DNA of 64,000 bases. It comes from a virus (lineage: Duplodnaviria > Caudoviricetes). Below the pieces are notes generated by a model. It did no database searches and had not been told where the DNA came from. It was given only the letters and a program-made list of their open reading frames with translations. Shown piece by piece: positions 933 to 32,733 of the stretch (positions within the stretch are counted from its first letter, which is position 1; each line of letters opens with the position of its first letter). The stretch lies in IMG/VR virus record IMGVR_UViG_3300025133_000020. The stretch is one strand, 5' to 3'. A program made the translations under genes and the position numbers.

Positions 933-1973
933 ATGCCTTTTAGAACACAACTAGACTTATCAAATAACCGTCAAGCTAAGGAACGACAAAGAACTATCAC
1001 CCAATTATCGGGTGCTACTATATTCGGAGTTCCATTCAGCGCGATGACTTCAGGTCCTGACTATCAGAACGAAGTCATCACCTCAAGCGTAAGCGGTTTA
1101 ACGAGTACTTTCACAGGTACGAGTGCTACCACAGTTTATACTTGGGCGCAACCTAATATGGTATTGGGAGAGCCTGTTTTAAGTGCTCTAACCCCTTCTA
1201 ATAGTGGTATCACTCAGAATACCGATAGCGTATTCTCAGCATGGACAACAACAACAATAGATGGTAATACAGTGGTATTAACATACTCAGGGGTTAGCTT
1301 TGACGTTAAACCTAATCAAATGGTGCAGTTAGCACCTAACTTATTTAGTGGTAATACCAATACGAATGTGTTAAATTACCTATCGGCTGGTACATTGGAC
1401 TTCACAGGAAGAACGATATGGGCTGATAATCCAGAAATAACAAGGACAGATAGACTGATTGTTAGTAGAAACCCAACAATTGGGTACGTTCTTACATGTA
1501 TTGATAATGAGGGTATGGTCGGGTGGTTCCCATCTTCTGGTGGAACCACTGGTGGAACAAGTACGGACGTATTCGTTACTGGTGGTACTTGTAGTGGATT
1601 AGAGATGACATTCACCAATAATACGGGTGGAACGTTCACCGTAACTGGTTGTACCTCAAGTGGTGGTACACCATCTAGTGCCGCAACGATTGATTTAATT
1701 GCTTCTACGACCAGTAGTGCTTATACAATGACTAATCTTGTTGATACGGTATTTATAGACTGTACCACTACTAATATTACAGCTACATTACCATCAATGA
1801 TTGGTAATGGTGGTAGAGTTTTAACGGTGGTTAGAACTGATAATACCGTTAACACTGGTACACTATCGGTAGGTGGGGTAGGATTTGTACAGGGAGCAGC
1901 ATCAGTGAACGTAGCAGCACAATCATCAATAACAGTAGTTTGTGACGGGGTTACTGGGTGGTGGATTAAATAA
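933..1973 (+). CDS. Ser/Thr/Gly-rich virion structural protein
   Basis: 346 aa; DVFVTGGT module shared with the fibre genes; 11 [ST]GxT motifs; beta-rich C-terminal domain. Confidence 0.7.
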   Translation: MPFRTQLDLSNNRQAKERQRTITQLSGATIFGVPFSAMTSGPDYQNEVITSSVSGLTSTFTGTSATTVYTWAQPNMVLGEPVLSALTPSNSGITQNTDSVFSAWTTTTIDGNTVVLTYSGVSFDVKPNQMVQLAPNLFSGNTNTNVLNYLSAGTLDFTGRTIWADNPEITRTDRLIVSRNPTIGYVLTCIDNEGMVGWFPSSGGTTGGTSTDVFVTGGTCSGLEMTFTNNTGGTFTVTGCTSSGGTPSSAATIDLIASTTSSAYTMTNLVDTVFIDCTTTNITATLPSMIGNGGRVLTVVRTDNTVNTGTLSVGGVGFVQGAASVNVAAQSSITVVCDGVTGWWIK

Positions 1974-1994
1974 TGAATAATAAAACAAAAGATA

Positions 1995-3671
1995 ATGACT
2001 TACATACCTAACGAAATTAATAGAATATCAACACTGAACTCACTAACAGGTGGGACGATGGCTGTTGATGGTGGTTACACTGGGACTTCGGAAAATATAT
2101 CTAACTATACCACACTTTCCGTGTCAGTATACACCCCCTTTGGTACCAACTTAAATGGTACCGTATGGTTGGAAGTGTCAAGAGATGATGTAAATTGGAA
2201 TACTATTCCTAGAACACTTCGAAATTCGTCTGTAGCACAACCTATAACATTTTTAGTAGCCGAGGAATACTTCAGATTAAGGTTTGAGAATGGGCAAGAC
2301 GGAGGTGGAAATCCTATCGATACTGTCTCAGCATCTACTATGCAAATGCAAACGATGTTCTCCACCACAAGACCTATGTTTATTGGTCACGAAATGGGTG
2401 AAACTATATACGATTGGACTGGTGGTGTGGTTAGTAAATCAGTCCTAACTGGTAGTTTACCATCAGGTAACTACGCTAACGTGAAGGTTAATTCTGAAGG
2501 TTCTTTGAACACTAGTATTACTAGCCCAAGAACCGCATTCGGTGAGTTACAAATGGCACAATTTACCCCAGCAATTCAAGTATCTTTCCAATATGATGTG
2601 GTCAACACTGATATTATCTCCAGTGGTGATACTGGTGGTGGTGGAACTATTAGTCAAGCTAACGGATTAATGACGTGTAGTACTGGTGCTAATACTGACG
2701 CAATCGGTAGTGCGGAGAGCATTAGGAAATTAAAGTATAGAGCTGGTCAAGGAGTAATGGCTAGATTTACCGCTATTTTTACAAGCGGTGTTACTGGTAG
2801 CCTACAAAAAATAGGTATAGGTAATGAGGTTGATGGGTTCACCTTTGCGTATTCTGGAGAAACGTTTGGGGTGATAAGGACTGATAGCGGTACCGAATAT
2901 TTTACACCACAATCGGCTTGGACTATTGACGTATGTGATGGTAGCGGTTCTGTTATGAATCCAAGTAATATTCTATTAGACCAAACAAAGGGTAATGTTT
3001 ATCAAATACAATTCCAGTGGTTAGGTTTTGGTTCTATCAAATACTTCATAGAAAAACCATCTTCGGGTGATTTTACTTTAGTACATGTGGATGAATACTC
3101 TAATAATCACACAAGACCTTCAGTACATAACCCAACGTTGCCACTCCATTTACATGCGGAGAATACCACAAACAATACTGATATAACCCTTCAATGTTCT
3201 AGTATGGGGGCATTTGTAGAGGGGGAAGAAGCGTTCTTAGGTCCTACCAACGCTTTTGAAAATACTAAAGGTGTGAATACCGAGACTTCAATATTCTCAC
3301 TATCTGGTAAAACAAGTTATGGTGGTCAAGTAAATTTAGTTGAAGCTATCGTACAAATGTTATCTGTAGGTAATGAGACTAATAAGAACGCTATCTTTAG
3401 AATTTGGGAGGATTGTACTTTGGGTGGTTCACCTTCATATCAAGATATTAATACCAACAACTCTATTGTTCAAGTGGACACGTCTGGAACAACGGTATCT
3501 GGCGGTAAATTAGTTTACGCAGTTGTGGTAGGAAAAGATAGTGGTGAAGGGTTTAACCTAAAGGAATTAGATATTAGGTTAAGACCAGGACACACCCTAA
3601 CATTCACATGTTCAACGGTTGGTGGTACAGATGATAAAAATATTGCCGTAGTTTGGATTGAAGATTTCTAA
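1995..3671 (+). CDS. Putative virion structural protein with lectin-like beta domain
   Basis: 558 aa; contains a phage-family-like block (RTAFGEL...KYRAGQG...YQIQFQWLGFG). Function inferred from position and composition. Confidence 0.6.
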   Translation: MTYIPNEINRISTLNSLTGGTMAVDGGYTGTSENISNYTTLSVSVYTPFGTNLNGTVWLEVSRDDVNWNTIPRTLRNSSVAQPITFLVAEEYFRLRFENGQDGGGNPIDTVSASTMQMQTMFSTTRPMFIGHEMGETIYDWTGGVVSKSVLTGSLPSGNYANVKVNSEGSLNTSITSPRTAFGELQMAQFTPAIQVSFQYDVVNTDIISSGDTGGGGTISQANGLMTCSTGANTDAIGSAESIRKLKYRAGQGVMARFTAIFTSGVTGSLQKIGIGNEVDGFTFAYSGETFGVIRTDSGTEYFTPQSAWTIDVCDGSGSVMNPSNILLDQTKGNVYQIQFQWLGFGSIKYFIEKPSSGDFTLVHVDEYSNNHTRPSVHNPTLPLHLHAENTTNNTDITLQCSSMGAFVEGEEAFLGPTNAFENTKGVNTETSIFSLSGKTSYGGQVNLVEAIVQMLSVGNETNKNAIFRIWEDCTLGGSPSYQDINTNNSIVQVDTSGTTVSGGKLVYAVVVGKDSGEGFNLKELDIRLRPGHTLTFTCSTVGGTDDKNIAVVWIEDF

Positions 3672-5338
3672 TGGGCGCTAACATACATAATTACGATTTA
3701 AACAACCTCAAGTTGAGAGTATCCAATAAGGATTATTGGGACTTTAATCTTGTTGATGGAGATGTTCTGGGTTCCGCATATACTGGGGTTACATCGGGTT
3801 CATGCTTCATAACTCATTTCGACTTCAATAACCCTAACATCTATTCAACTGGTTCAACATCTGCCGACACTATCTATTCACTTAGAAGCTGGGAAGATGC
3901 TGTTAACACTGGGTATACACTTACCACTATTGGTATCACAGGAATCGATAATGGTCTGGTCACATTCGATAAAGCTACTGGCGATACGAGCAATACCGCC
4001 TTATTATCAGCCTTAACTGGTACAACGTTAGTTATACCTTCAGGTGATAGTAGATTCATAATGAATCGTGTTACTGGTATGACAGAACAATACATTTACC
4101 CTATCGATATTATGTCAGGTTCAAGTGGTAATCACGCAAGATTGTGTGGTGGGTTCTATCAAGGATACTACAAGTTGGATGGATACAACTATGAGGTGCT
4201 ACCTAACAGAGTACCTAAAGGGTGGACAGCCGAACTATGGGTCAATAAGTCAGATACGGTTTGTAGTGGCTATACGGGCACGACATTGAATGACGACTTC
4301 CCAGATAATAAAGGGTTCTTCTTCTACATGGGTACCAGAGCAGAAAATAAATTCTGGACAGTATTCGGTGGGGTGGATTCTGGTTGCACAAGTGCGTGTA
4401 CCGTACCTTTAGGATGTGTGGATACGGTAACAGAATGGTGTACAGTACCTAAAGAAACAAACATAACATTAGCTGATGGTCACGCTCTAAGCCCACCACC
4501 AACCAGATTCATTACCGTTACAAACGGATTCTTGATTTATGGTAATGGTGCTGGAGGTACTAACCATTACGGTGTTACATATCCTGAAGGTAAAATGGCT
4601 AGAAGCTTTACTGGAGATAGTGTGACTTATATAGCTCGTTCTCAGACGGTTACGGATTTTAGAAATCCATTCTCAATTTATTGCGAATCGTGTAGAAACA
4701 GTAATTGTAATAATGGTTGCGAGACTGTTCAAACATATTCTGGCGCTACTACGAGTGAATTAACTTTAGATGTTGATGCTGATATTATAGATAACGCTAT
4801 AGGGTTCAGGGTGAAGGATGACGGTAGTATTGGGTATAGATTGCTTAGTGTTACTGGTGCGTGTTCTGGTGATACATACACATCTGGTGTTACCGTAACG
4901 GAAGATTATTCGGTTAGTGGTACTGTAAGTGGTGATGTATGGACTAACATAGCTGTTAGGTTCTTCGCGTATGAGACCTATGATGATGATGAATTGGCTT
5001 GTAGTGCAAGACGATTGGGTAGGTTAAGTATATATGTGAATGGTAAGTTGAAGTTATGGGTGGATGACTTCTTAGAGATAGTACCAAGGCGACTTGAAGA
5101 GGATAAGTCTAAACAGGTCGCGGTACCGTATAACATAAGTGTAGGTGGTGGTTCTCAGGGATTATTGGAGAGTATGACGTTTGATGGTCAAGACCCAAGC
5201 GATTTAGGGTTAAATATAGAACAGAATTTTGCTGGAACCTTCGTTGGTGACATCTCACAATTCAAGTTCTATGCCTGTGATTTGAGTTGGGTTGACATCC
5301 AGAACGATTTTAATCAAGAATTATCTAGATATAGCTAA
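3671..5338 (+). CDS. Virion protein with LamG/concanavalin-A-like domain and Cys-rich inserts
   Basis: GWTAELW...WTNIAV...LSIYVNGKL...FVGDISQFKFY pattern typical of LamG folds; TAATG overlap with the upstream gene. Confidence 0.6.
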   Translation: MGANIHNYDLNNLKLRVSNKDYWDFNLVDGDVLGSAYTGVTSGSCFITHFDFNNPNIYSTGSTSADTIYSLRSWEDAVNTGYTLTTIGITGIDNGLVTFDKATGDTSNTALLSALTGTTLVIPSGDSRFIMNRVTGMTEQYIYPIDIMSGSSGNHARLCGGFYQGYYKLDGYNYEVLPNRVPKGWTAELWVNKSDTVCSGYTGTTLNDDFPDNKGFFFYMGTRAENKFWTVFGGVDSGCTSACTVPLGCVDTVTEWCTVPKETNITLADGHALSPPPTRFITVTNGFLIYGNGAGGTNHYGVTYPEGKMARSFTGDSVTYIARSQTVTDFRNPFSIYCESCRNSNCNNGCETVQTYSGATTSELTLDVDADIIDNAIGFRVKDDGSIGYRLLSVTGACSGDTYTSGVTVTEDYSVSGTVSGDVWTNIAVRFFAYETYDDDELACSARRLGRLSIYVNGKLKLWVDDFLEIVPRRLEEDKSKQVAVPYNISVGGGSQGLLESMTFDGQDPSDLGLNIEQNFAGTFVGDISQFKFYACDLSWVDIQNDFNQELSRYS

Positions 5339-5396
5339 GTATTTCACTATTTACTAATAAATAACGTATCGACCTGCGCTTGTCGTGGGTCAGATA

Positions 5397-5417: not shown

Positions 5418-8400
5418 ATGGCAACTAATAGATTGAAATTAAGAAGCACCGCAAGTCCCTATACTTTCCCACAACCAGATACAGTAAAGGGGTCGGTATT
5501 AAGTTGGGGCGAAGTTGACAACAACTTCATATTCCTTAAGGGTCTTAACATAAAGAACGGTGTGTATGATAGTGGTACTTCTACTATCACTCTTAATCGA
5601 ATAGATGGTACTACAGTTAGCATATCTGGTATTACTGCTGGTGGTGGTGGTACTGGGAATACTGCATACTCATCTATCGATAACTACGTTTCTGCCGTAA
5701 CTAAAACAATTACTCACAATCTTGGAACTACAAGTATCGTTGCTCAATTGGTTGACACTGGGGCTAACGAACAAATCGTAGGTTACCTTAATAACTACCA
5801 ACTTAATTCTGTAGATGTTCTACTTAGTGATACAATACCTGACGTTGAGATATCAATCGTAAGTGTTGGTGGTAGTGGAGCTACTGTTGGTGGTGTGGAT
5901 GTTTTCGTAACAGGTGGTACATACAGTGGTAGTAATATATTATTCGTTAATAATACTGGTGGTACGTTCTCAGTAAGTGGTATTACTGGTGGTGGTGGTT
6001 CTGGTGCTACAATGTTCACATCTACCGATAACTACGTTTCTGGTGTAACTAAAACAATTACTCACAACTTAGGTACTGATGGTGTTATGGTTCAATTGAA
6101 CTACAATAACGAATTGGTGGTTGGTGAGGTAAATAATTATCAAACCAATTCTGTTGATGTGACGATGAGTCAGACCTTGAATAACGTTAAGACGTTAGTT
6201 CTTGGAGGACCTATTACAAGTGGTGGTACTGGTGGTACGGATGTTTTCGTAACTGGTGGTACATATACAGGTACAACAATCATATTCACAAATAACTCAG
6301 GTGGTACATTCAGTGTTAGTGGTATTACTGGTGGTGGTGGTACAGGTACAACTGTATATGAATCAACAGATAATTACATCTCTGGTGTAACTAAAACAAT
6401 TACTCACAGTCTTGGAACGACAAGCATCCTATCACAATTAATTGATACTGGAGCTAATGAAATGATTGATGGGTTCATAGATAACTATCAAACCAATTCT
6501 GTTGATGTTACGTTAAGTCAAACTCTGAACGGTGTTAAGATAGTAGCTGCAAGTATTGGTGGTTCTGGTAGTACTTCACCTGCTGGTTCAGATACATGGG
6601 TTCAATATAATGATAGTGGTTCATTTGGAGCCACAAGTGGTTTTACTTGGGATGGAAGTGAAAAATTAGATGTAACTTCAAACTACAGTGGTTCAACTCA
6701 AAAATTAGTTATCGGTAACCCTAATTTAGCTGGATTAGCTGATTATGATGGTGTGAGTATGACATATAGGAATCCTTTATCTGGTGGAACAAGTGTTATC
6801 ACAGCAGGTAATTTATCTGGTCTTAGTGGGGAAGATAACCATACTGTAGTGGGTTACGTTGATTTTCTGGGTAGTGTGCAACACATGATTACCGCAAGTC
6901 CAGTTACTGGTCTAGATATGTCATCTGAGGTTGGTAGTGATACCGCTAAATTCAACTTAGAAGCTGGTGAAAATGTTAGAGTTGATGTAAATAGTACTGC
7001 CACTACCGCATTCCAAGTTTACGATGGTAATACTGGTACTATCAGATTTGCTGTTGACGTTAACGGTGGTGGTGTTACAATTAATGATTCATTCACATTC
7101 CCTAACGGTGATGGTAATAATGGGCAAGTATTACAAACAGACGGAGTAGGAAACGTAACATGGGAAGATGTTAGTGGTGGTACGGGTAGTACTTCACCTG
7201 CTGGGTCTGATACTCAAATACAATTCAACGATAGTGGTTCATTCGGAGCCAATACTGGTTTTACATTCAGCCCTTTGAGTGGTAACGTGTTATCAGTACA
7301 ATCAGGTTACGGTACAAGTGGTAGTACCACTAAAATGTCCAGACAATTTGTGGGTATAGACTCATTATCATCAATTGAGGGTGCTGGTACACTGTATACC
7401 AATAGTGACGCACCTAATTACGCAACTATAAACGCTATAGGTAATTTGAATACTTTAGGTTTAAGTGATAATGGTGTCGTAGTAGGTAACTTTAATTTCG
7501 GTGGTGGTAGAGTAGGTTTATTTGCTGAGACTGGCGCTACTCAAATGGCGTTAGTAGACAACAACGCTAATTATAATTCTAATGTTTTAGTCGATTATAT
7601 TGGGATAGGATTGAACTATGTTAGTGGTAATACCGAATCATCATTACAAGTTGGTAATGGTGGTGTTCAAGCTCATTTGAATCCAGTATCTGGCGACACA
7701 AAACAATTTGCCGTAACTAATGGTAGTGGTGTTAATTATTTTTCAGTAGATTATAGTCCACAGTATGGTTATAGTGGTATCACATTCTTTGAAGCATACA
7801 CGTTCCCAACAACTGATGGGTCTGCTAACCAAGTACTGGAAACAAATGGTGTCGGTGAATTATCGTGGGTTAGTGTATCAGGTGGTGGTTCATCAATAAT
7901 GGTAGTTGGTGGTGGAAGTAATTCTACAGTTAGAGACGGTGTTGGTAACCAAGCTACAAGTGACCGTTCAGCCGCATTAGGTGGTGGTGGTAATACTGCT
8001 TCTGGTTATTACTCAACTATTGCTGGTGGTAGTACTAATGAAGCTGGTGGTAATTGTTCATTCGTAGGTGGTGGACAAAGTAACAGTGGTACCACGGAAT
8101 ACTCAACTATTGGTGGTGGTTGTGGTAATACCGCTTCAGGTACTTATGCAACGATTGCTGGTGGTGGTGGAATGATGGGTGGTAACTGCGCTACTGGTTG
8201 CGCTTCATTCATTGGTGGTGGTGGTGCTAATACAGCATCTGGATATTATTCAGTAGTTGCTGGTGGTGGTGGAATGGGTGGTAGTAATTCCGCTTCAGGT
8301 AACTACTCTGCCGTTTTAGGTGGTTATGGTAATACCGCTATTGCTCATGGTTCAACAGTTGGTGGTGGGTATAATAACACAGCTTCAGGTTATTATTCAG

Positions 8401-8726
8401 TAGTAGCTGGTGGTAATGGTAATACCGCTTCAGGTTTCTGTTCAACGATTGTTGGTGGGCAAGATAATACTGCTGGTGGAGCTAAGGCTGCCATTGTTGG
8501 TGGTTTAAATAATACAGCATCGGGTGATTACTCATTCGTTGGTAATGGTAATAATAATACTGATAGTGGGTGCTCATGCGCAATGATTGTTGGTAGTAAT
8601 ATAACCGCAGATAGAGCTTGTACAACATTCATGAATAACCTATCAGTAAAGAATATTCCAACAAGCGCTGCTGGATTACCTTCAGGTTCTGTATGGAGTT
8701 CTGGTGGAACATTAATGATAGTATAA
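5418..8726 (+). CDS. Tail fibre/adhesin-like protein A
   Basis: 1102 aa. N-terminal KGSVLSWGEVDNNF attachment-type motif; 3x ITH(N/S)LGT repeats; 2x FP..DG.NGQVL.T.G.G...W; about 13 copies of a 15-aa xSxIGGGxxNxASG repeat. Confidence 0.8.
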   Translation: MATNRLKLRSTASPYTFPQPDTVKGSVLSWGEVDNNFIFLKGLNIKNGVYDSGTSTITLNRIDGTTVSISGITAGGGGTGNTAYSSIDNYVSAVTKTITHNLGTTSIVAQLVDTGANEQIVGYLNNYQLNSVDVLLSDTIPDVEISIVSVGGSGATVGGVDVFVTGGTYSGSNILFVNNTGGTFSVSGITGGGGSGATMFTSTDNYVSGVTKTITHNLGTDGVMVQLNYNNELVVGEVNNYQTNSVDVTMSQTLNNVKTLVLGGPITSGGTGGTDVFVTGGTYTGTTIIFTNNSGGTFSVSGITGGGGTGTTVYESTDNYISGVTKTITHSLGTTSILSQLIDTGANEMIDGFIDNYQTNSVDVTLSQTLNGVKIVAASIGGSGSTSPAGSDTWVQYNDSGSFGATSGFTWDGSEKLDVTSNYSGSTQKLVIGNPNLAGLADYDGVSMTYRNPLSGGTSVITAGNLSGLSGEDNHTVVGYVDFLGSVQHMITASPVTGLDMSSEVGSDTAKFNLEAGENVRVDVNSTATTAFQVYDGNTGTIRFAVDVNGGGVTINDSFTFPNGDGNNGQVLQTDGVGNVTWEDVSGGTGSTSPAGSDTQIQFNDSGSFGANTGFTFSPLSGNVLSVQSGYGTSGSTTKMSRQFVGIDSLSSIEGAGTLYTNSDAPNYATINAIGNLNTLGLSDNGVVVGNFNFGGGRVGLFAETGATQMALVDNNANYNSNVLVDYIGIGLNYVSGNTESSLQVGNGGVQAHLNPVSGDTKQFAVTNGSGVNYFSVDYSPQYGYSGITFFEAYTFPTTDGSANQVLETNGVGELSWVSVSGGGSSIMVVGGGSNSTVRDGVGNQATSDRSAALGGGGNTASGYYSTIAGGSTNEAGGNCSFVGGGQSNSGTTEYSTIGGGCGNTASGTYATIAGGGGMMGGNCATGCASFIGGGGANTASGYYSVVAGGGGMGGSNSASGNYSAVLGGYGNTAIAHGSTVGGGYNNTASGYYSVVAGGNGNTASGFCSTIVGGQDNTAGGAKAAIVGGLNNTASGDYSFVGNGNNNTDSGCSCAMIVGSNITADRACTTFMNNLSVKNIPTSAAGLPSGSVWSSGGTLMIV
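5684..6550 (+). repeat. Three ~60-codon ITH(N/S)LGT repeat units in fibre A (fourth copy in fibre C, ~13655-13850)
   Basis: Units start near 5684, 6021 and 6363; the DNA gtaactaaaacaattactcaca is shared by all three. Confidence 0.85.
7950..8600 (+). repeat. 45-nt degenerate coding tandem repeat (beta-solenoid), about 13 units
   Basis: Consensus xxSxIxGGxxNxASG; Gly almost always encoded by GGT. Confidence 0.85.
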
Positions 8727-8750: not shown

Positions 8751-11669
8751 ATGGCAGCAAGAAATAATATTTATGGTAACCTAGCGGTTAGAGGAACATT
8801 AAGTTTGAGAAACTTCGAGTTCCCAACATCAGATGGGACAAACGGTCAAGTAATGGTAACCGATGGTGGTGGTGGCTTATCGTGGGTTAACATGTCAGGT
8901 GGAACGTCAGGTTGCTGCTTAGACGTATTCGTAACGGGTGGTACTTATAGTGGTGATACAATCATATTAACTAATACCACAGGTGGTACAGTTAGTATAA
9001 CGGGAATCACAGGTGGTGGCTCTGGTAGCACAAATCCAGGTGGTAATGATTATGCTGTTCAGTTTAATAACACTAATACTTTTGACGGTAACGATGATTT
9101 CACTTGGAATCACGTAGATGGAATCCTTAATGTAACAAGTAGTGCTGGAACTGGTGTTAACAGATTCAGTGTTGGTTCTGCGGTAATAGCGCCAATGATA
9201 GATATTAGCGGTGTTACCTCAAATATTTATGAGAATCCACTATCAGGTGGTAGTTTACACACAGTATCCCTCCAAGGGGACTTAAGTGGGGTTGGCATGG
9301 GTGATAATGGTACCTTTATAGGTAACGTATCTTTAATGGGTGATGATACTGCAACTATAGGTCTAAGTCAAGAAAGGGTTCAATTAAGACATAATGACGG
9401 AACCTACGGTAATAATAACACCACTATTTATCTTGCTAATGGTATACAAATGGAATTACCAGATACTAGTGGTAATACTCTATTTGACCTCAGAAATAGT
9501 AATCATGACCAACTAATTCGAATCCGTAGTTGTGGTGATATAACATTTAATAATTCATATACATTCCCTAATTCCGATGGTAATAACGGGCAAGTATTGC
9601 AAACAGACGGTGGTGGTGTTTTATCATGGGAAGATGCCGCTTCAGGTGGTACATCAGGTGGTTCATCGACATCAATTATAATAACTGGCACTGGTGTGAA
9701 CTCTACAATGCGATGCGGTAATAATAATAGCGCAACGGGTGACTATTCAACCGCTTTTGGTAGGAATAGTATAGCTTCGGGTAATTGTTCAACAGTGAGT
9801 GGTGGATATAATAATAGTGCTGAGGTTAATGGTGATTTTTCCACCATCGGTGGTGGTGCTAGTAATGCGACAACTTGTTGGTTTACGACCATTGGTGGTG
9901 GTAGACAGAATACTGCATCTAACTATTACGCAACCGTAGCTGGTGGTGACCAAAATAACGCTACTGGTAATAATGCAGCCATTGGTGGTGGTGCTAATAA
10001 TACCGCTTCAGGTAATTATTCATTCATAGGTGGTGGTAATAATAACGTGGCTACAGTTGCTAGGGCAGTTGTTGTTAGTGGACAAGAAAATTGCGCTAAC
10101 GGTGACCAATCTTTCATTGGTAGTGGTTATCAAAATATAACTTCTGGTAATCATACAGCAATTGTAGCTGGTTGGGATAATACGGCATCAGCCAATTACT
10201 CATCTATAGGTGGTGGTGCCCATAATACCACATCTGGCGGTACTTATGCGTCAATTGGTGGTGGTCAGAGTAATACGTCAAACGCTGCTAACACAACCGT
10301 TGCTGGTGGTAGTGGTAATACGGCTTCAGGATATGCGGCATTTATTGGAGGTGGAGCATATAATACCGCTAGTGATGCTGCATCAACCGTAGCTGGTGGT
10401 GTAAATAATGTTGGTTCGTGTGTTTATTCAACTATAGCTGGTGGTAAAGATAATATCGCTTCAGGTAATTCAACCACGATTGCTGGTGGAGAAAATAACA
10501 CTGCTGGTGATGACTACACAACCATTGCTGGTGGTAAAGATAATGTCAGTAATTATTACGCATCATTCGTTGGTGGTGGGTGTGGCAATGCCGCTACTTG
10601 TACTTATTCGACAATTGCTGGTGGTAGTGGAAATACAGCATCTGGTGGTTATTCATTCGTTGCTGGTGGTTTGGGTAATACCAATAGTGGTACTGGTTCA
10701 ACGATTGCTGGTGGTATATATAATATCATTAATAGTGATGCTGCTGCATCTACGATAGGTGGTGGATATAATAACACTATTCCGACAGGAACTACTGTGA
10801 CTATTGGTGGTGGGCAATATAACACAGCATCTGCAAATAGAGCAACAATTGCTGGTGGTAGTGGTAATACAGCGTCTTGTCATGGTTCAACAGTAGGTGG
10901 TGGTAAGATGAACAACTCAAGTGGTGATTATGGTACAATCAGTGGTGGTTGGATAAATAATGGTTCAGGTAATTGTTCTGTAATAGGTGGTGGTAGTGAA
11001 AATACTGCCTCTGGTACAATATCCTTCATCGGTGGTGGTAGAGCTAACAGTGCAACTACAACATACTCAACAATCGTTGCTGGGTGTAACCACTTAGCGT
11101 CTGGTCTATATTCATTCATTGGTGGTGGTCAAGATAATACTGCTACAGGTAATCACTCAACCATAAGTGGTGGGTACGATAATGACGCTACAGGTGATTG
11201 TTCTACAATCGGTGGTGGTAAGGATAATATCGCAGAGCAAAACGCAACAATCGGTGGTGGTATTGATAACACCGCATCAGGTTATTACGCGGTTATTGGA
11301 GGTGGTACAAATAATACTGCTAATTCTGGTTGGCACGTAACTATTGCTGGTGGTAATAGGAATACTGGTTCAGGTAACTATGCAACCATAGGTGGTGGTT
11401 GGAGGAATGATGCTTCAGGTGAGTATACAACCGTTGCTGGTGGTAGGTGTAATGTGGTAGACGGAGACGGTTCTGGTATTCTTGGAGGGTATAATAATAG
11501 TATTACTGGTACATCAAAAACGTTTATCGTTGGGGATAATATTACAGCTAATAGAACTTGTGCAACATTCGTTAACAACTTATCCATTACGGATATACCA
11601 ACTAGTGCTGCTGGCTTACCTTCAGGTTCGGTTTGGCGTAGTGGTACTACTTTACAAATTGTAGTATAA
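8751..11669 (+). CDS. Tail fibre/adhesin-like protein B
   Basis: 972 aa; about 39-40 copies of the 15-aa repeat; C-terminal cap (IPTSAAGLPSGSVW) nearly identical to fibre A. Confidence 0.8.
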   Translation: MAARNNIYGNLAVRGTLSLRNFEFPTSDGTNGQVMVTDGGGGLSWVNMSGGTSGCCLDVFVTGGTYSGDTIILTNTTGGTVSITGITGGGSGSTNPGGNDYAVQFNNTNTFDGNDDFTWNHVDGILNVTSSAGTGVNRFSVGSAVIAPMIDISGVTSNIYENPLSGGSLHTVSLQGDLSGVGMGDNGTFIGNVSLMGDDTATIGLSQERVQLRHNDGTYGNNNTTIYLANGIQMELPDTSGNTLFDLRNSNHDQLIRIRSCGDITFNNSYTFPNSDGNNGQVLQTDGGGVLSWEDAASGGTSGGSSTSIIITGTGVNSTMRCGNNNSATGDYSTAFGRNSIASGNCSTVSGGYNNSAEVNGDFSTIGGGASNATTCWFTTIGGGRQNTASNYYATVAGGDQNNATGNNAAIGGGANNTASGNYSFIGGGNNNVATVARAVVVSGQENCANGDQSFIGSGYQNITSGNHTAIVAGWDNTASANYSSIGGGAHNTTSGGTYASIGGGQSNTSNAANTTVAGGSGNTASGYAAFIGGGAYNTASDAASTVAGGVNNVGSCVYSTIAGGKDNIASGNSTTIAGGENNTAGDDYTTIAGGKDNVSNYYASFVGGGCGNAATCTYSTIAGGSGNTASGGYSFVAGGLGNTNSGTGSTIAGGIYNIINSDAAASTIGGGYNNTIPTGTTVTIGGGQYNTASANRATIAGGSGNTASCHGSTVGGGKMNNSSGDYGTISGGWINNGSGNCSVIGGGSENTASGTISFIGGGRANSATTTYSTIVAGCNHLASGLYSFIGGGQDNTATGNHSTISGGYDNDATGDCSTIGGGKDNIAEQNATIGGGIDNTASGYYAVIGGGTNNTANSGWHVTIAGGNRNTGSGNYATIGGGWRNDASGEYTTVAGGRCNVVDGDGSGILGGYNNSITGTSKTFIVGDNITANRTCATFVNNLSITDIPTSAAGLPSGSVWRSGTTLQIVV
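9730..11510 (+). repeat. 45-nt degenerate coding tandem repeat, about 39-40 units
   Basis: Counted by eye from the translation; units are 14-17 aa. Confidence 0.85.
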
Positions 11670-11717: not shown

Positions 11718-12608
11718 ATGAGTAAGACCTTTTCAATTTTCCACATAGAGGGTGGACTAGGAAAACATATTGCTGCTACCGCAGTAGCCGAAGCAATTAA
11801 AAAGAATCACCCAGATAGGGAACTGATAGTAGTTTGTGCCTACCCAGAGATATTTTTGAACTTGGGATTTATAGATAGGGTATACCGTTTAGGTATGGTT
11901 CCATATTTCTATAGAGATTTCATTGACGGGAAGGATTCGCTCATCTTTAAACATGAGCCTTATTTCACCACAGACCACATCCATAAGAGATTACCATTGA
12001 TTGAAAATTGGTGTAAATTATATGATTTGGATTACGGTGGTGAAACCCCGTCACTGGTGTTTAATAGGCGACAACAGGAATTTGGTTACAACAAATGGAA
12101 TAGGGATAAACCTATCGTGGTGATACACACCAATGGAGGACCGATGGATGAACAACCATATCCATATTCTTGGTGTAGGGATATACCAAAAGATTTAGCT
12201 CAATCTATAGTTGATTATTATAGTGTAAGTGGTCATCATGTGATACAGATATGTAGAAACCAAGTCAACGCTTTAAATAACGTTGAAGTGGTCACTGAGT
12301 CAATGGGTAATATGGAGCTATTATCGTTATTATTACTATCACAGAAGAGGATTTTAATAGACTCATCATTACAACACGCAGCCGCAGCCTTAGAATTACC
12401 TTCAACGGTATTATGGGTGGCAACCTCACCAAATATATTCGGATACAGCATTCATAGTAACGTTCAAGCGAATTTACCAGAGACGGTTAAATTACCAGAT
12501 AGTTACCTATTCGACTATAATTTCAATGGTCTAATTCATGAGTGTCCAATATTAGATGAGCCAATTTTCAATTACGATGAAGTTATGGATGTAATACATG
12601 GCACCTAA
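11718..12608 (+). CDS. GT-B fold glycosyltransferase (GT9/heptosyltransferase-like)
   Basis: N-terminal GGLGKHIAATA...HPDRELIVV and C-terminal IDSSLQHAAAALELPSTVLW..TSP..FGY match the GT9-like pattern. Confidence 0.75.
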   Translation: MSKTFSIFHIEGGLGKHIAATAVAEAIKKNHPDRELIVVCAYPEIFLNLGFIDRVYRLGMVPYFYRDFIDGKDSLIFKHEPYFTTDHIHKRLPLIENWCKLYDLDYGGETPSLVFNRRQQEFGYNKWNRDKPIVVIHTNGGPMDEQPYPYSWCRDIPKDLAQSIVDYYSVSGHHVIQICRNQVNALNNVEVVTESMGNMELLSLLLLSQKRILIDSSLQHAAAALELPSTVLWVATSPNIFGYSIHSNVQANLPETVKLPDSYLFDYNFNGLIHECPILDEPIFNYDEVMDVIHGT

Positions 12609-13416
12609 GATATATTTTCAAAGTTCATTACCGAGAGCTGGTTCTACATTACTTCAAAACGTTGTAGGTCAAAACCCAGAGTTCTACGTTACACCAACAT
12701 CTGGCGTATTAGAGCTTGTATATGCTGCCAGAGCCAATTACAGCTCTTCTCCCGAATTTAAAGCCCAAGATGGTGAGTTGATGAAGGAAGGGTTCCTATC
12801 GTTCTGTAAAGGTGGTGTAGAGGGTTTTTTCAAGGCTATCACTGATAAACCATTCGTATTAGATAAGAGTAGAGGTTGGGGTGTCCATTATGGTTTCCTA
12901 AATTCTTTCTACCCAGACCCTAAAATCGTATGTATGATTAGAGACCCTAGAGATATATTCACTTCGATGGAAAAGAACTTCAGGAAGAATCAACATCAAG
13001 ATTCTGGTATAGTGAATCACGCTGAGATGAAGGGAACTACCACTGAGAAACGCATCGATACTTGGGTTAACAGTCAACCAGTAGGATTAGCCATGGAAAG
13101 GTTACAACAAATAGTTAAAGAAGGTATCGATAATAAGATGTTATTCATCAAATTCGAAGACCTTTGTAGTAGACCAGACGTAGAAATGAAACGTATGTAC
13201 AACTACTTAGAATTACCCGAATTTAAGCACGATTTCAATAATGTGGAACAGATAACCATGGAAGATGATTCGGTATACGGTATCTATGGTGACCACAACA
13301 TCAAAACTAAAATTTCCCCACAACCAAGTAAGTATAATGAAATATTGGGTAAGGGTGCATCTGATTGGATTCGAAACCATTATGGATGGTTTTACGATAA
13401 TTTCGGATACGCTTAG
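12598..13416 (+). CDS. PAPS-dependent sulfotransferase
   Basis: 5'-PSB loop SLPRAGSTLL, 3'-PB motif IRDPRDIFTS, and later IKFEDL motif; overlaps the GT gene by 11 nt. Confidence 0.85.
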   Translation: MAPKIYFQSSLPRAGSTLLQNVVGQNPEFYVTPTSGVLELVYAARANYSSSPEFKAQDGELMKEGFLSFCKGGVEGFFKAITDKPFVLDKSRGWGVHYGFLNSFYPDPKIVCMIRDPRDIFTSMEKNFRKNQHQDSGIVNHAEMKGTTTEKRIDTWVNSQPVGLAMERLQQIVKEGIDNKMLFIKFEDLCSRPDVEMKRMYNYLELPEFKHDFNNVEQITMEDDSVYGIYGDHNIKTKISPQPSKYNEILGKGASDWIRNHYGWFYDNFGYA

Positions 13417-13470: not shown

Positions 13471-15345
13471 ATGGCTAATTCAAAAATATTTAACGGTGTA
13501 ACCATATATGGTAATCTAGATGTTGGTGGTAACTATACCTTACCGTCTGTAGATGGTAGTAACGGACAAGTACTTCAAACCGATGGTGGTGGTACTGTGA
13601 CATGGCAAGCAGTATCAGGTGGTACTGGTGGTGGCTCAGGTTCAACATACTCATCAACCAATGATTACATATCTGGTGTAACTGGAACAATCACACACAA
13701 CCTTAATTCTATTGACGTTATAGTTCAATTAATTGATACTGATAATAACGAGCAGATTGAGGGTTATATAAACAACTTCCAACTTAATTCTGTTGACGTT
13801 ACCTTAAATGATACACTAACCAACGTAACAACTGTTGTGGCTGGTGGTATATTCGTAAGCGTTTCGGGAGCGACTGGTAGCACAAGTCCAGGTGGTTCAG
13901 ACCAAGATATTCAATATAATAGTAGTGGCTCATTTGCTGGTGATAGTAATTTCACTTGGGATAATGCCATGTCCAACTTTAGTGTTGATAGTACCACTGG
14001 TTATAATAGTATCATAACCAATATTGGTGAGGGTGATGCAACTAATGTTGGTGGTAATACGTTTAGAGGTGCTAGTATGGTATACAATAACACCCTATCT
14101 GGCGCTAGCGCTACCACATCAATCATGATTGGTGACTTAGATGGTTTCTTAGGTGATAATACAGTATTTATGGGTTACGCTAGTACGGGTAAAACTCACG
14201 CTATATTCACGACACCCTTTATAGCGCAGATGGTGGCAACAGATAGTACTACTAATGATAACTCTGTCATCAATGCCACCGTAGATAGGGGTATTACTTT
14301 ATCATCCGATTATCTTGGTCGTCAGGCTCAACTAACCGTATACAATGATGTTAACGCATTTGTACATACTGGTGGCACATTCAACGTGAATAGTAGCTCA
14401 GGTAACCCATTCAAAGTAAATAATGATGGTACTGTAGAGTTTAATAACGCTTTCACCTTCCCTAATTCAGGTGGGACTAACGGACAAGTATTGCAAACCG
14501 ATGGTGGTGGAAACGTAACATGGGCTAACGTATCAGGTGGTGGTTCATCAATCATGGTAGTTGGTGGTGGTGGTGATTCAACGATGAGGTGTGGTGTTTC
14601 GAATGCGTCAAATGGTAATTACGCTGCCGCTTTGGGTGGTTGTGATAACACAGCATCAGGTAATTACTCAGTGATTGGTGGTGGTCCAAGTAATACAGCT
14701 TCAGGTAATACATCTACTATTGCTGGTGGTGCAAATAACTGTACATATGCACCTTATTCAACCATTGGTGGTGGATGGGAGAATACAGCATCAGGTAACT
14801 ATTCAGTTATTGCTGGTGGTGGTGGTATGGGTCAAGGTAATACGGCAAGTGCTTATCACTCTACTATTGGTGGTGGTGGTTATAACGTAGCTAATAAATG
14901 TTTCACAACCGTAGGTGGTGGTGCCGCTAATACAGCTTCAGGGTATTATTCAACCGTTGCTGGTGGTAGTAATAACATCTCAAGTGGTCTCTATTCATCC
15001 GTTATTGGTGGATGGGAGAATACAGCTTCAGGGTATTATTCAACCGTTGCTGGTGGATTCTACAATAGAGCATCTGGTAACACATCAGCCATAATAGGTG
15101 GTTGTGGTAATACTGTGAGTGGTAATTACTCAGCAATCATTGCTGGAGAATCATTCTCATTATCAGCTAATAGTACTGTGATGGTACCAAACCTGATTGT
15201 TAATGATGAGCTTACATTCAATAACATAACAACCACATCTGGTGCGACACTGGGTGCTGGTGGCGGATTACCAGCGATAAACGAAGGGTTTATATCCGTA
15301 GCTATAGGTGGTACAACATATAAAATACCATATTACAACAACTAA
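13471..15345 (+). CDS. Tail fibre/adhesin-like protein C
   Basis: 624 aa; one ITHNL unit, two GQVLQTDGGG modules, about 12 beta repeats; C-cap type 2 (IGGTTYKIPYY). Confidence 0.8.
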   Translation: MANSKIFNGVTIYGNLDVGGNYTLPSVDGSNGQVLQTDGGGTVTWQAVSGGTGGGSGSTYSSTNDYISGVTGTITHNLNSIDVIVQLIDTDNNEQIEGYINNFQLNSVDVTLNDTLTNVTTVVAGGIFVSVSGATGSTSPGGSDQDIQYNSSGSFAGDSNFTWDNAMSNFSVDSTTGYNSIITNIGEGDATNVGGNTFRGASMVYNNTLSGASATTSIMIGDLDGFLGDNTVFMGYASTGKTHAIFTTPFIAQMVATDSTTNDNSVINATVDRGITLSSDYLGRQAQLTVYNDVNAFVHTGGTFNVNSSSGNPFKVNNDGTVEFNNAFTFPNSGGTNGQVLQTDGGGNVTWANVSGGGSSIMVVGGGGDSTMRCGVSNASNGNYAAALGGCDNTASGNYSVIGGGPSNTASGNTSTIAGGANNCTYAPYSTIGGGWENTASGNYSVIAGGGGMGQGNTASAYHSTIGGGGYNVANKCFTTVGGGAANTASGYYSTVAGGSNNISSGLYSSVIGGWENTASGYYSTVAGGFYNRASGNTSAIIGGCGNTVSGNYSAIIAGESFSLSANSTVMVPNLIVNDELTFNNITTTSGATLGAGGGLPAINEGFISVAIGGTTYKIPYYNN

Positions 15346-26524: not shown

Positions 26525-27960
26525 TGCCAAAAGGATTTAGAAAACAGTTAAAATTAACCTCTCAAAAGGTTGGGGTAGAACGTAGACAGGAACTGCTCGA
26601 TGGTATCGCTGATGGTAATGGTTTCCTACCTCAAGGTGTTCATATCCGAGATATGGATGCATCCTTCATTGATTTTGTTAATGAGAACCTTAAGATAGAG
26701 ATTGATGGTGAGCAAGTGCCTGTTATCTTCTTAACCATTCAAAGATACTCTGATTTCACCAAGACGTGGAAATTCACTGATGAGTACAAGAATATCAAGA
26801 TGCCTTTCATAACGATTGTTAGAAACCCTGACATTCAGAAAGGAACAAATCAAGCTGGATTAGCCAATATACCAGGACATCAACATTGGTCTTACTACAA
26901 AGTTCCATCTAATGATGGTGCCAGAGTTGGAGTGGATATCTATAAGATTCCACAACCTACTGCGGTGGATATCACCTATGAGGTTAGATTCTTCAGTAAT
27001 AAGATGTCTGACGTGAATGTCATTCACAATAAGGTTCAACGAGAATTCAACGCTATACAATCTTACATTTACCCAAAGGGGCATCCTATGCCTATTACGA
27101 TACCCACTATCAGTGATGAAAGTAATATTGAGGATTTTGAAAACAGACGTTTCTACGTTCAAACCTTCGAGATGCTATTGGCTGGTTATATCTTAGATGA
27201 GAATGATTTCGAGGTTCAACCAACGATTAATAGGGCGATGGTATTAAATGAGATTGCGATTGACCCTGAAACAGCCGAACCGTATCCAAACCAAAACAAG
27301 AGAACGCCTGTAATCAGAACCCAAGGTAATGTTATCATTCGTAACAGTGCTGGTCAGTTAATCAATTCAAGTGCGTGTGATACTTCATATGTGGTTGGAA
27401 ATTCAGAGATAATTAATTCTGGTGCGACATGGAGCGTAAGTGTTCCAGCAACCAGTGGTTATACATTAGAGAATGTGATTAACTATGATAGTGATGGTTC
27501 ACCAGTAGTAACACCTGCAATGGTAGGTTTTACCGCAACAACGTGTGACCCCGCTACCATTATTAATTCTGGTGCAACATATTCAGCTACAACGCCTGCT
27601 GGAAGCATATTCAATGTACCTAACACACCAATATTCAGTACGTCTTCAGGGTTTACTGATTCAACACCATCAGTTGCTACAGGTTATACGATAGGTGATG
27701 TGGCTTGGACAGATAGTGATGGGGTACCTAAGACAACCGAATACGGTCAACCTATCGCATGTATATTAGCATTAAAGGATGAGGTGGAACACGATTTTGT
27801 ACCACCAATGGATTATTTGGGTAGGGCACCTAATGGTACGTTGACCAGTGCTAGTGCTTGGACGATAACTAGGATTGAGGTATTCACTGGTGGTACCACT
27901 GATGTTAAATCAGCCACTAATGTAGCATGGGACGATAGGTATATCGTTATTTACTCATAA
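26524..27960 (+). CDS. Tail completion/terminator protein (gp15-like) with ~230 aa Ser/Thr-rich C-terminal extension
   Basis: N-terminal ~245 aa has a gp15-like pattern (KMPFITIVR...PTAVDITYEVRF...YVQTFEM); the C-terminus has an unrelated composition. Confidence 0.6.
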   Translation: MPKGFRKQLKLTSQKVGVERRQELLDGIADGNGFLPQGVHIRDMDASFIDFVNENLKIEIDGEQVPVIFLTIQRYSDFTKTWKFTDEYKNIKMPFITIVRNPDIQKGTNQAGLANIPGHQHWSYYKVPSNDGARVGVDIYKIPQPTAVDITYEVRFFSNKMSDVNVIHNKVQREFNAIQSYIYPKGHPMPITIPTISDESNIEDFENRRFYVQTFEMLLAGYILDENDFEVQPTINRAMVLNEIAIDPETAEPYPNQNKRTPVIRTQGNVIIRNSAGQLINSSACDTSYVVGNSEIINSGATWSVSVPATSGYTLENVINYDSDGSPVVTPAMVGFTATTCDPATIINSGATYSATTPAGSIFNVPNTPIFSTSSGFTDSTPSVATGYTIGDVAWTDSDGVPKTTEYGQPIACILALKDEVEHDFVPPMDYLGRAPNGTLTSASAWTITRIEVFTGGTTDVKSATNVAWDDRYIVIYS

Positions 27961-29786: not shown

Positions 29787-29838
29787 TAAGTAGATAATCA
29801 AGATATTATAATAAAGACACACAAAAAAATAAAGTTAA

Positions 29839-32733
29839 ATGGCTGAAAATAGAGTATTCGTTAGTCCAGGTGTATATACCTCAGAAAGAGATTTAAGTTT
29901 CGTTACCCGTCAAGTCGGTGTAACAACATTGGGATTGGTAGGTGAAACCGTAAAAGGACCTGCATTTCAACCCGTATTCATATCAAATTATGACGAGTTT
30001 ACAACCTTCTTCGGAGGTCAAAATGCTACAAAATTCAAAGATGGTGGGTACCCTAAATATGAGTTGCCATACATCGCAAAATCATATTTGACACAATCAA
30101 ATCAATTATTCGTAACAAGGGTCTTAGGATTCTCAGGTTATGATGCTGGTGAAGCATGGGGTATTACCCTTGATGCCGCATTAGACCCAAGTACAGTTGC
30201 TACCGTTTCAGGTGCGACTTATTCTGGATTCTCAGGTGATTCATTAGTTACTTATACCACAACAACTGGTGGTACATTCACAACTACCGCTAACGTAGGT
30301 GAGCCAGCGATTCAACAATTAATCGATGATGGTTTACTTACAACTGAATTAGCATTCTTAGAGACTGCGGCTGTAAGTGCTACAACTACTGTGGCTTGTA
30401 CATACTATAAGGTTGGAAGTACCTTTATTGGTAGCTCCTTCAACTTGTACGTAACTGATATTGTAACAGGTCTTAGTGGTTCAACCACAGGTTACACTTC
30501 TGGTGTAACTACAAGTTGTTCAGGTACATCTTATTCAGATGTTGAAAACCAAATTGTAGCGTTATTACGTTCAAGAGGTGAGTATGACGGTGATGAATAC
30601 TTGATTCCTGAAGTAACAGGTTCAACAACAACAGATACGACATATGTTGAATTTGGTGCTACACCAACTGATGCTGAAACAGACCCAATGGGTAACTTCT
30701 CATTAAGTGGTCTTGCAACCACATTGGGTGCGTTCGATTACAACCTATCATTTGATGTTACAAAGAGAAATTACTTAGGTAAAGTTCTTGGTAGAGGTGA
30801 GAAAGATGGTAAGACAGCAATCTTTGTCGAGGAACTATATCAAAATATGATGGATAAGGCAGTCGAGGATGAAAAAGTAAGAGGTGTGAACCTTTCACTT
30901 ATTGACTATGCTAGTCCACTTGGGCTTAAGCCATTTGATGATTACAAAGAAGAATACGCACCTGCGGTATCTCCGTATGTCGTATCCGAACTTCGTGGTA
31001 CCAACTTACTTAGATTGTTCAGATTCTGGACAATTGCTGATGGTAATGCGGCTAACCACCAAATTAAGATTTCAATCATAAACATAAAACCAGACGATAA
31101 AACTTTCGATTTAGAAATTAGAAGTTTCTTCGATACTGACTCTAATAAAGTGGTTCTTGAAAAATTCGCAAGATTGACGATGGACCCAACATCAAACAAC
31201 TACATTGCCAAGAAGATTGGTACGTTGGATGGTGATTACGCTTCAAACTCTTCTTACGTATTAGTTGAATTGGATGATACATCCGATACTAGTGATGCGT
31301 TCCCAGCAGGTATGCTTGGAGTTCCGTTAAGGGATTACCATGAGGCTATTGCGGCTAACACTGGTGTGACTTACCCAACAATCTGTTACAACCAAACATA
31401 CGGGGCTTTCGAAAATAAGAGAAAAGTTTATTTAGGTCTTTCTGATACTGTAGGTATTGACCAAGACTTCTTAGATTACAAAGGTGTACCTAACGATACA
31501 GACCTTTCAATGTGGACTGGTCTTACTAAAGGTTTCCACATGGATGTTGACGCCACTGGCGCAACTATCGATGGTGTGGAAGTTGTTTACAACTCATCAG
31601 GTGATACATACTCACCAGTATTCTTGTTTGATACAGGATGCTGCGAGTTCAGAACTGATGCTGGAATAGCAGACACAGCTTACGACAAGATTTATGCTCG
31701 TAAATTCACATTTGCACCTTACGGTGGTTTCGATGGTTGGGATATCTACAGAGATAGAAGAACTAACAGAGACAACTATAGAATAGGTCAAAGTAAGAGT
31801 GATGCCGCATTACTTTCTACTGCAATTGCAAATAGAGCATTAACAAACGGTGATAATGGTACGAGTGCCGATTACTACGCTTACTTAGAAGCTATCTGGA
31901 CATTCAATAACCCTGAATCAGTAAACATTAACTTGTTTGCAACTCCTGGTATTGACGGTTTAGAAAACACTAATTTGGTGGAAGAAACAATCGAAATGAT
32001 TGAAGAGGACAGAGCCGATTCACTATACGTTATGACATTACCAGATGTTGATTCTGGTGGTCAAATACTAACACCAGAGGATATCTCAAGTGACCTAGAT
32101 GGTATGTACGATAGCAGTTATACTGCAACGTTCTTCCCGTGGGTTCAAGTGAGTGATACTGAGAACAACGTTTACATCTGGTTACCTGCAACAAGGGACT
32201 GGGTACGAAACGCAGCTTTGACTGACAATATCGCATTCCCATGGTATGCGGTTGCAGGTATTCAAAGAGGTGACGTGGCAGCTATTAAAGCGAGAACTAA
32301 ACTTACTCAAACTAATAGAGACACACTATATGAAGCAAGAATCAACCCAGTAACTACCTTCGCATCAGATGGTATTAAGATTTGGGGTAACAAGACTCTT
32401 CAAGTTAAGGAAACAGCACTTGATAGAATCAACGTTAGAAGATTGCTACTACAAGCAAGAAAACTTATTTCTGCTGTATCTATCAGATTGTTATTCGAGC
32501 AAAACGATGACATCGTAAGGAACCAATTCCTTGGACTGGTTAATCCTATCTTGGATAACATCAGGTCAGAAAGAGGTCTTACAGACTTCCGTGTGGTATT
32601 GGATGACAGCCCAGAATCTAGAGATAGAAATGAGCTTTGCGGAAGAATATTCATCAAACCAACAAGAGCACTTGAGTTTATCTGCGTTGAATTCAACGTT
32701 ATGAACACTGGAGCATCGTTCGAAGATGTTTAA
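29839..32733 (+). CDS. Contractile tail sheath protein (gp18-like)
   Basis: N-terminal SPGVYTSERDLS...GETVKGPAF; C-terminal RINPV...GIKIWGNKTL...RINVRRLL...LLFEQND...IFIKPTRALEFI. Confidence 0.97.
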   Translation: MAENRVFVSPGVYTSERDLSFVTRQVGVTTLGLVGETVKGPAFQPVFISNYDEFTTFFGGQNATKFKDGGYPKYELPYIAKSYLTQSNQLFVTRVLGFSGYDAGEAWGITLDAALDPSTVATVSGATYSGFSGDSLVTYTTTTGGTFTTTANVGEPAIQQLIDDGLLTTELAFLETAAVSATTTVACTYYKVGSTFIGSSFNLYVTDIVTGLSGSTTGYTSGVTTSCSGTSYSDVENQIVALLRSRGEYDGDEYLIPEVTGSTTTDTTYVEFGATPTDAETDPMGNFSLSGLATTLGAFDYNLSFDVTKRNYLGKVLGRGEKDGKTAIFVEELYQNMMDKAVEDEKVRGVNLSLIDYASPLGLKPFDDYKEEYAPAVSPYVVSELRGTNLLRLFRFWTIADGNAANHQIKISIINIKPDDKTFDLEIRSFFDTDSNKVVLEKFARLTMDPTSNNYIAKKIGTLDGDYASNSSYVLVELDDTSDTSDAFPAGMLGVPLRDYHEAIAANTGVTYPTICYNQTYGAFENKRKVYLGLSDTVGIDQDFLDYKGVPNDTDLSMWTGLTKGFHMDVDATGATIDGVEVVYNSSGDTYSPVFLFDTGCCEFRTDAGIADTAYDKIYARKFTFAPYGGFDGWDIYRDRRTNRDNYRIGQSKSDAALLSTAIANRALTNGDNGTSADYYAYLEAIWTFNNPESVNINLFATPGIDGLENTNLVEETIEMIEEDRADSLYVMTLPDVDSGGQILTPEDISSDLDGMYDSSYTATFFPWVQVSDTENNVYIWLPATRDWVRNAALTDNIAFPWYAVAGIQRGDVAAIKARTKLTQTNRDTLYEARINPVTTFASDGIKIWGNKTLQVKETALDRINVRRLLLQARKLISAVSIRLLFEQNDDIVRNQFLGLVNPILDNIRSERGLTDFRVVLDDSPESRDRNELCGRIFIKPTRALEFICVEFNVMNTGASFEDV

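Follow-up and report, generated by a model that had tools for sequence, protein, structure and literature searches.

A hydroxyl-specific four-residue motif enriched in outer tail proteins of aquatic jumbo T4-like phages as a candidate tag for phage-encoded O-glycosylation

The four-residue motif [ST]-G-x-T occurs far more often than expected in the outer tail proteins encoded by a 64,000-nucleotide stretch of phage DNA (IMG/VR record IMGVR_UViG_3300025133_000020), which we refer to as the window. Ten proteins of the window contain 121 copies of the motif, compared with 25.7–27.7 expected from shuffles that were confined to blocks of 10, 20, or 40 residues (z about 19). In this phage and in hundreds of its relatives, the enrichment in outer tail, fibre, and sheath-decoration proteins amounts to four to eight times chance. 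We tentatively favor a model in which [ST]-G-x-T, together with a second form, S-A-x-T, may constitute a selected, hydroxyl-specific tag of the acceptor type that serves O-glycosylation by a phage-encoded enzyme.

An earlier reading of the same DNA (hereafter designated the original prediction) had described the motif as saturating virion proteins and named an origin in Ser, Thr, and Gly composition as grounds for refuting its proposal. The block-confined shuffles rule out composition, even local composition, as the cause. Counts made by eye in the original prediction were exact (11 motifs in the protein encoded at position 933, 6 at 1995, 12 at 3671, 6 at 17079, 6 at 26524, 10 in the tail sheath, and 2 in the polymerase). 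Controls for residue order (a dot denotes any residue) fell at or below expectation, with ratios of 0.81 for the reverse pattern T.G[ST], 0.82 for [ST]G.S, 0.94 for [ST]GT, and 0.65 for [ST]G..T. The substitution controls [ST]G.[VI], [ND]G.T, and SG.G were found at 0.34, 0.55, and 0.40 times expectation. Asn and Asp are the usual equivalents of Ser and Thr in turn and capping motifs. At position 4, Thr is enriched 4.6-fold, compared with the ratios just given for Ser and for Val or Ile. Glycosaminoglycan chains are attached at a core of S-G-x-G, often with acidic neighbors. An analogy drawn in the original prediction between [ST]-G-x-T and these Ser-Gly sites is not sustained by the counts, as SG.G occurs 7 times versus 17.6 expected and, with an upstream acidic residue, 2 times versus 3.8.

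An unbiased search over every tripeptide, with or without a gap, in six proteins that lack homology to one another ranked SG.T first (27 observed versus 3.0 expected), SA.T second (14 versus 1.5), and TG.T third; TA.T was not enriched. Codon use is mixed at every position of the motif, which indicates that the signal sits in the protein rather than the DNA and rules out a DNA-level cause. The spacing between motifs revealed no periodicity, and the motif is also present in globular domains. These aperiodic gaps and globular copies exclude a periodic repeat of a fibre shaft, such as a β-spiral or a rung of a β-helix.

The original prediction stated that the motif saturates virion proteins and spares enzymes. 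The latter is correct, as the remaining 32 proteins of the window contain 7 motifs in total versus 10.2 expected. Saturation applies to the ten carriers, which include four fibres that had been overlooked and that contribute 70 additional motifs. It does not apply to the tube, hub, and large inner tail proteins: no excess was found in the tail tube, the hub-like protein, the proteins at 28288, 35577, and 36917, and those of 1312 and 2176 residues (together 4 motifs versus 5.5 expected), and the tube (33253) has none. The proposal of a coat over the whole virion is unsupported because these inner tail proteins lack the motif and the window contains no capsid gene.

The motif is located in outward-facing or recently added parts of the tail, namely fibres, baseplate-distal proteins, sheath insertions, and a neck or tail-terminator extension. 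This agrees with the earlier description of accessory or surface-type segments. Motifs in the sheath occur only in its insertions, and the gp18-like core (conserved C-terminal residues 650–964) has none. In the 26524 protein, all six motifs lie between residues 299 and 455 and the first 298 residues are free of them. A homologue of 254 residues from a relative lacks this C-terminal part, which we accordingly regard as an extension. Homology among the carriers is limited to modules that recur in the four fibres and at the C-terminal end of the 933 protein. The sheath insertion, the 26524 extension, and the proteins at 1995, 3671, and 17079 (the small one) exhibit no homology to one another. Thus, six non-homologous proteins or segments in one phage bear the motif. 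The lack of relationship among carriers indicates that the excess arose several times in one genome, and the restricted paralogy eliminates a single shared mobile domain as the source of all carriers.

The motif occurs across a large clade of jumbo T4-like phages from aquatic habitats. At 57 IMG/VR loci, homologues of the 3671 protein (32–67% identity) contain 636 motifs versus 79.5 expected; those of the 933 protein at 47 related loci contain 486 versus 138, and 79 sheath homologues contain 489 versus 147. A complete 321-kb relative with terminal repeats and a sheath 40% identical to that of the window (IMGVR_UViG_3300005613_000002, designated G006) has 170 motifs where 52.5 are expected, clustered in roughly a dozen proteins. 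Strong tandem repeats of a different kind, T-x-E-P / E-P-x-T (85 versus 7 expected), also occur in one or more large G006 proteins.

Comparison of 46 homologues in the 3671 family revealed six motif columns that are kept in 70–100% of the sequences, with Ser and Thr interchanging at position 1 and x nearly free. On average, a sequence has 5.6 motifs in conserved columns and 6.0 in variable columns versus 1.5 expected in total. Conservation is 0.75 at position 1 versus 0.49 for other Ser and Thr residues and 0.68 at position 4 versus 0.37, and falls below average at x. In the farthest homologues (32% identity), the conserved columns are without the motif, which indicates that the 3671 fold can do without it.

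Other phages argue that the excess is not a general trait of fibres or sheath insertions rich in Gly, Ser, and Thr. No excess was found in the structural proteins of T4 (7 versus 8.0 expected) or Synechococcus phage S-MbCM6 (16 versus 12.6), in Pelagibacter phage HTVC008M or Microcystis phage Mel-JY01, or across the whole 484-kb phage LR756508 (69 versus 51, with no enriched open reading frame). In the 735-kb phage LR756501, about 13 proteins also show the excess, and its specificity is the same (187 versus 29 expected). Ratios for other motifs in LR756501 are 0.85 for DGY, 1.4 for [ST]GS, and 1.8 for T.SG. This phage also encodes two giant proteins of 2816 and 3487 residues (102894–111344 and 399879–410342) that are extremely rich in Ser, Thr, and Gly and poor in the motif, with 74 versus 143 and 107 versus 172 expected from local shuffles.

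We interpret [ST]-G-x-T as an acceptor-type tag because the excess is sharp, order-specific, first in the unbiased search, and hydroxyl-specific at positions 1 and 4; because unrelated carriers in one phage bear it, always in accessory or outer segments; and because motifs occupy partly conserved and partly shifting columns of a fold that does not need them, with no excess in the control phages. We infer that an enzyme reads the tag, that this enzyme is a glycosyltransferase designated GT424, and that the mark is a sugar. In this mechanism, a soluble, phage-encoded glycosyltransferase would O-glycosylate the Ser or Thr at position 1 in the cytoplasm, and the acceptor would need a small residue at +1 and the hydroxyl of Thr at +3. 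The original prediction of an acceptor-type tag therefore survives insofar as the tag appears selected and hydroxyl-specific and glycosyltransferases are encoded nearby; the writers it named, a GT9-like glycosyltransferase and a sulfotransferase, fail, and GT424 is the best candidate in their place.

GT424 is a 423-residue GT-B (GT4/GT1-like) glycosyltransferase whose gene lies just upstream of the window, beside the 933 and 3671 genes; the 10 kb upstream of the window were read from a 109.7-kb JGI metagenome contig (locus L140, with GT424 at 5193–6464) that carries an identical 933 gene. The assignment draws on phrog_7162 (E 7e-37), Glycos_transf_1 among language-model neighbors, and a weak match to Glyco_transf_4; no sequence match was found in the PDB. 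Its candidacy is based on synteny, on a split among contigs, and on LR756501, which has no structural gene in common with the window. GT424 is encoded upstream of the 933 and 3671 genes in 46 of the 57 loci at 42–68% identity. Among contigs that bear the sulfotransferase, it is present in five of five motif-positive and none of five motif-negative contigs (the motif-negative set includes a 95%-complete genome). The only deposited phage with a clear homologue is LR756501 (also deposited as LR756503); a Klebsiella phage has a weak match of 25%. LR756501 encodes 6 of 54 tested proteins from the window region, none of them structural. LR756508, which has the sheath, tube, and hub in common with the window, lacks both GT424 and the motif. 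Of the 54 proteins, GT424 alone is present in the clade, G006, and LR756501 yet absent from LR756508. A bifunctional GT2+GT4 protein (GT553), which is also encoded upstream of 933 and 3671, and DUF5662 are ruled out as universal partners of the motif by their absence from LR756501 and G006, respectively. A broader form of the proposal is conceivable, although we hold it with some doubt: a conserved GT-B enzyme may act in the cytoplasm to write an S/T-(G/A)-x-T sequon onto the outer tail proteins of aquatic jumbo phages, which number in the hundreds, and may do so independently in a 735-kb megaphage, which would produce a sugar coat with attachment sites that evolve like the glycan shields of animal viruses.

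Several observations weigh against the acceptor model. The link to GT424 is mostly confounded by shared ancestry, with LR756501 as the one clearly independent lineage. No more than a weak excess (12 versus 5 expected) is seen in an outgroup whose GT424 homologue is 42% identical, and two distant homologues (32%) adjoin fibre-like proteins with little or none. GT424 could instead be a DNA glycosyltransferase, since a gene resembling dUTPase/dCTP deaminase lies nearby. AlphaFold models of the 3671 protein and the sheath (mean predicted local distance difference test scores of 70 and 68) contain 22 motifs, 12 of which either put Thr in a β-strand, usually with Ser/Thr-Gly in the preceding loop, or form a two-residue hairpin; one is a clean two-residue hairpin. 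Cytoplasmic glycosyltransferases of adhesins use acceptors of the type strand, short loop, strand. The modeled context thus appears to fit a structural strand-entry idiom and a glycosyltransferase acceptor equally.

Such an idiom is quite possibly the correct explanation, even if we lean away from it. [ST]-G-x-T would then mark entry from loop to strand, or a tight hairpin, in the shuffled, β-rich accessory domains of this lineage that are rich in Gly, Ser, and Thr, and nothing would read it. The prevalence of loop-to-strand transitions or hairpins in both models is consistent with this explanation, as is the residue directly before the motif, which is hydrophobic at six times expectation (the one after it is often hydrophobic too). 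Several positions are kept over deep divergence, and part of the fibre count stems from shared modules and from head repeats resembling those of YadA and UspA1. Other properties of the motif are difficult to reconcile with a purely structural role. Val and Ile at position 4 and Asn and Asp at position 1 are depleted, although they are apt for a generic strand start or turn cap, and the acceptance of Ala at position 2 after Ser argues against a need for glycine with a positive phi angle. The character of x differs among conserved sites, being hydrophobic at some and Gly, Asp, or Asn at others, so no single geometry fits. Moreover, new columns keep gaining motifs, spacing is aperiodic, and the motif is common to unrelated proteins and to an unrelated 735-kb phage yet not enriched in structural homologues in T4, Kyanoviridae, Mel-JY01, and LR756508.

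The same statistical evidence for selection would apply if the tag were read by something other than a glycosyltransferase, such as a different post-translational modification, an assembly or chaperone factor, or a ligand from the environment or host, and the link to GT424 is correlative only. We consider this explanation unlikely because no candidate gene was found, and glycosyltransferases are the sole modification enzymes that recur beside the carrier genes.

The original prediction assigned the writing to the GT9-like protein at 11718 and the sulfotransferase at 12598, which together would place a sulfated glycan on the motif. The fibre cluster encloses both genes, and the sulfotransferase is securely assigned. 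In addition, the GT9-related enzymes TibC and Aah O-heptosylate Ser that precedes Gly or Ala in the β-helices of adhesins (PMC4358343). The 11718 protein may plausibly be GT9-like, judging from language-model neighbors that include a cluster with PF01075 in 45% of its members; it has no Pfam match and reaches heptosyltransferases in the PDB only at E=2. With 296 residues, it is too short for the TibC β-barrel, and its five Cys residues (40, 99, 153, 179, and 276) are scattered rather than clustered into a four-Cys iron finger.

Comparative analysis makes the pair very improbable as the writers. The two genes are present in at least 170 phage contigs. Of the sulfotransferase loci, 57 were of sufficient length for a judgment; among these, the GT9-like gene accompanies the sulfotransferase as often where the fibres are motif-rich (11 of 12 loci) as where they are motif-poor (25 of 27). 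Conversely, neither gene is within 10 kb in any of the 57 motif-rich 3671 loci. Five large motif-rich contigs all lack the GT9-like gene, and one of them has a single distant (29%) homologue of the sulfotransferase. Neither gene was found in the complete genome of G006, which retains its excess. Motif-poor neighbors and motif-rich genomes without the pair rule it out as a required writer, and the excess is independent of it; in this phage, the pair could still contribute to, or have as its target, something else.

The two genes form a cassette whose members travel jointly, and the same neighbors of 246, 302, and ~150 residues often recur beside it (loci L016–L080; window 11718–13416). Occurrence of the cassette in at least two different groups of T4-like phages points to its horizontal spread. 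Some fibres rich in Gly, Ser, and Thr that adjoin the pair (loci L073, L074, and L004) fall far below expectation for [ST]-G-x-T, with 0 versus 13 and 1 versus 8, which may reflect avoidance or a different repeat grammar.

N-x-S/T and D-[ST]-[AILVMT] of Bacteroidota are the sequons of glycosylation systems that act outside the cytoplasm. [ST]-G-x-T resembles them in that it is short and ordered, leaves a middle position free, and has a hydroxyl residue downstream of the acceptor. It differs in that its proposed writing is cytoplasmic, and the other two sequons are at background in the carriers (122 versus 110.7, or 1.1 times expectation, for N.[ST] and 28 versus 29.4, or 0.95 times, for D[ST][AILVMT]). 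A closer parallel exists in mycobacteriophages, whose virions are glycosylated by phage-encoded glycosyltransferases (Freeman et al. 2023, as cited in PMC12619734). As in those phages, soluble glycosyltransferases encoded near structural genes here (GT424, the GT2+GT4 protein, and the candidate GT9-like gene) would act on virion proteins within the cytoplasm. According to the summary in PMC12619734, which mentions no short sequon, the mycobacteriophage glycans reside on C-terminal stretches of capsid and tail tube subunits. By contrast, the motif of the window is missing from the tube and is borne by fibres, sheath insertions, and baseplate-distal proteins, and the pattern is a sharp one of four residues. 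The modification is proven in mycobacteriophages, as summarized there, and is proposed here.

The adhesins TibA and AIDA-I, modified by TibC and Aah, provide another comparison, with many Ser residues O-glycosylated in the cytoplasm on β-rich proteins. Mapped sites in TibA consist of Ser followed by Gly-Gly or Ala-Ala, and only Ser is modified with no requirement for Thr at +3; TibC is a dodecamer of ~406-residue protomers with an N-terminal β-barrel, a β-hairpin thumb, and a four-Cys iron finger (PMC4358343). The TibA sites resemble S-[GA]-x. In our case, Thr also serves as a potential acceptor and Thr is found at +3; the GT9-like protein has neither barrel nor iron finger, and GT424 is GT4/GT1-like rather than GT9.

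We know of no defined sequon described previously for glycosylation of tailed-phage particles. If [ST]-G-x-T is an acceptor site, it would be, as far as we know, the first of its kind, and it could be read directly from the sequences of an uncultured clade that is very abundant. Sugar-coated tail surfaces would become predictable, it could be tested how such a coat influences recognition of the host, stability, or marine grazing, and the enzyme and tag would offer a pair for cytoplasmic glycoengineering. Were the motif structural only, it would still be a building idiom of striking specificity that is restricted by lineage, has appeared in two phage groups unrelated to each other, and requires explanation. 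In either case, a sulfated coat made by the GT9-like protein and the sulfotransferase can be set aside.

Table 1. Motif carriers and associated features, in window coordinates
Feature	Coordinates	Strand	Remarks
346-residue virion-type protein, 11 motifs	933..1973	+	C-terminal part has a ~35-residue module in common with the fibres
558-residue virion structural protein, 6 motifs	1995..3671	+	phrog_1645
555-residue protein, 12 motifs; C-terminal lectin/CBM40-like jelly roll	3671..5338	+	
Fibre 1, 1102 residues, 30 motifs	5418..8726	+	
Fibre 2, 972 residues, 16 motifs	8751..11669	+	
GT9-like glycosyltransferase candidate, 296 residues	11718..12608	+	Tested as motif writer; no link
Sulfotransferase	12598..13416	+	PF13469, E 1e-17; tested, no link to motif
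Fibre 3, 624 residues, 11 motifs	13471..15345	+	
Fibre 4, 543 residues, 13 motifs	15363..16994	+	
Small protein, ATG at 17079, 6 N-terminal motifs	17040..17453	+	
18-bp tandem repeat, 3.1 copies, codes for repeated S-G-D-T-V-T	17096..17150	+	
C-terminal extension of the 26524 protein (residues ~299–478), holds all 6 motifs	27418..27960	+	
Tail sheath insertion domains (residues 124–590), all 10 motifs	30208..31611	+	

The overall features of the carriers are listed in Table 1. The C-terminal ~190 residues of the 3671 protein match CBM40 and concanavalin-type lectin folds (Foldseek E about 2e-4). This lectin-like fold suggests that the 3671 protein is probably a carbohydrate-binding protein involved in receptor recognition. 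Conserved Cys residues are unusually plentiful in the same protein. The C-terminus of fibre 1 (residues 853–1066) matches the head of the trimeric autotransporter adhesin UspA1 (PDB 3pr7, E 2e-23), and no sequence match in the PDB was found for the 1995 protein. Identification of the 26524 protein as gp15, made in the original prediction, was not confirmed by sequence, including a BLAST comparison with gp15 of HTVC008M. Six motifs do fall within the first ~40 residues of the small protein, as predicted, provided that translation starts at the ATG at 17079. The tandem repeat that had been noted near 17097 is real, with a period of 18.

The GT424 family comprises at least 584 IMG/VR loci, with 298 representatives at E 1e-30 or better. 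Contigs of its distant members, drawn from a library of 1.8 billion proteins, are short or poor in structural genes. Many representatives are 560–830 residues in length and match GT424 in two separated stretches, with a break near residues 172–312. The extra length and divided matches suggest frequent in-frame insertions, for example inteins or endonuclease fusions. A homing endonuclease gene adjoins GT424 itself (L140:5193-7188).

The window derives from a distant T4-like jumbo myovirus of marine origin with a G+C content of ~39%, and encodes a gp18-type sheath, a tail tube, a family B DNA polymerase, helicases, and recombination genes. No near-identical DNA was found among deposited phages in the phage collection searched; among deposited sequences, the sheaths of Microcystis phage Mel-JY01 and of an uncultured phage of 484 kb come closest. 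The window contains a homing endonuclease gene of the HNH/DUF723 type (22782–23867), which is flanked by a neck-region gene and an SNF2 helicase gene (phrog_559, E 3e-88).

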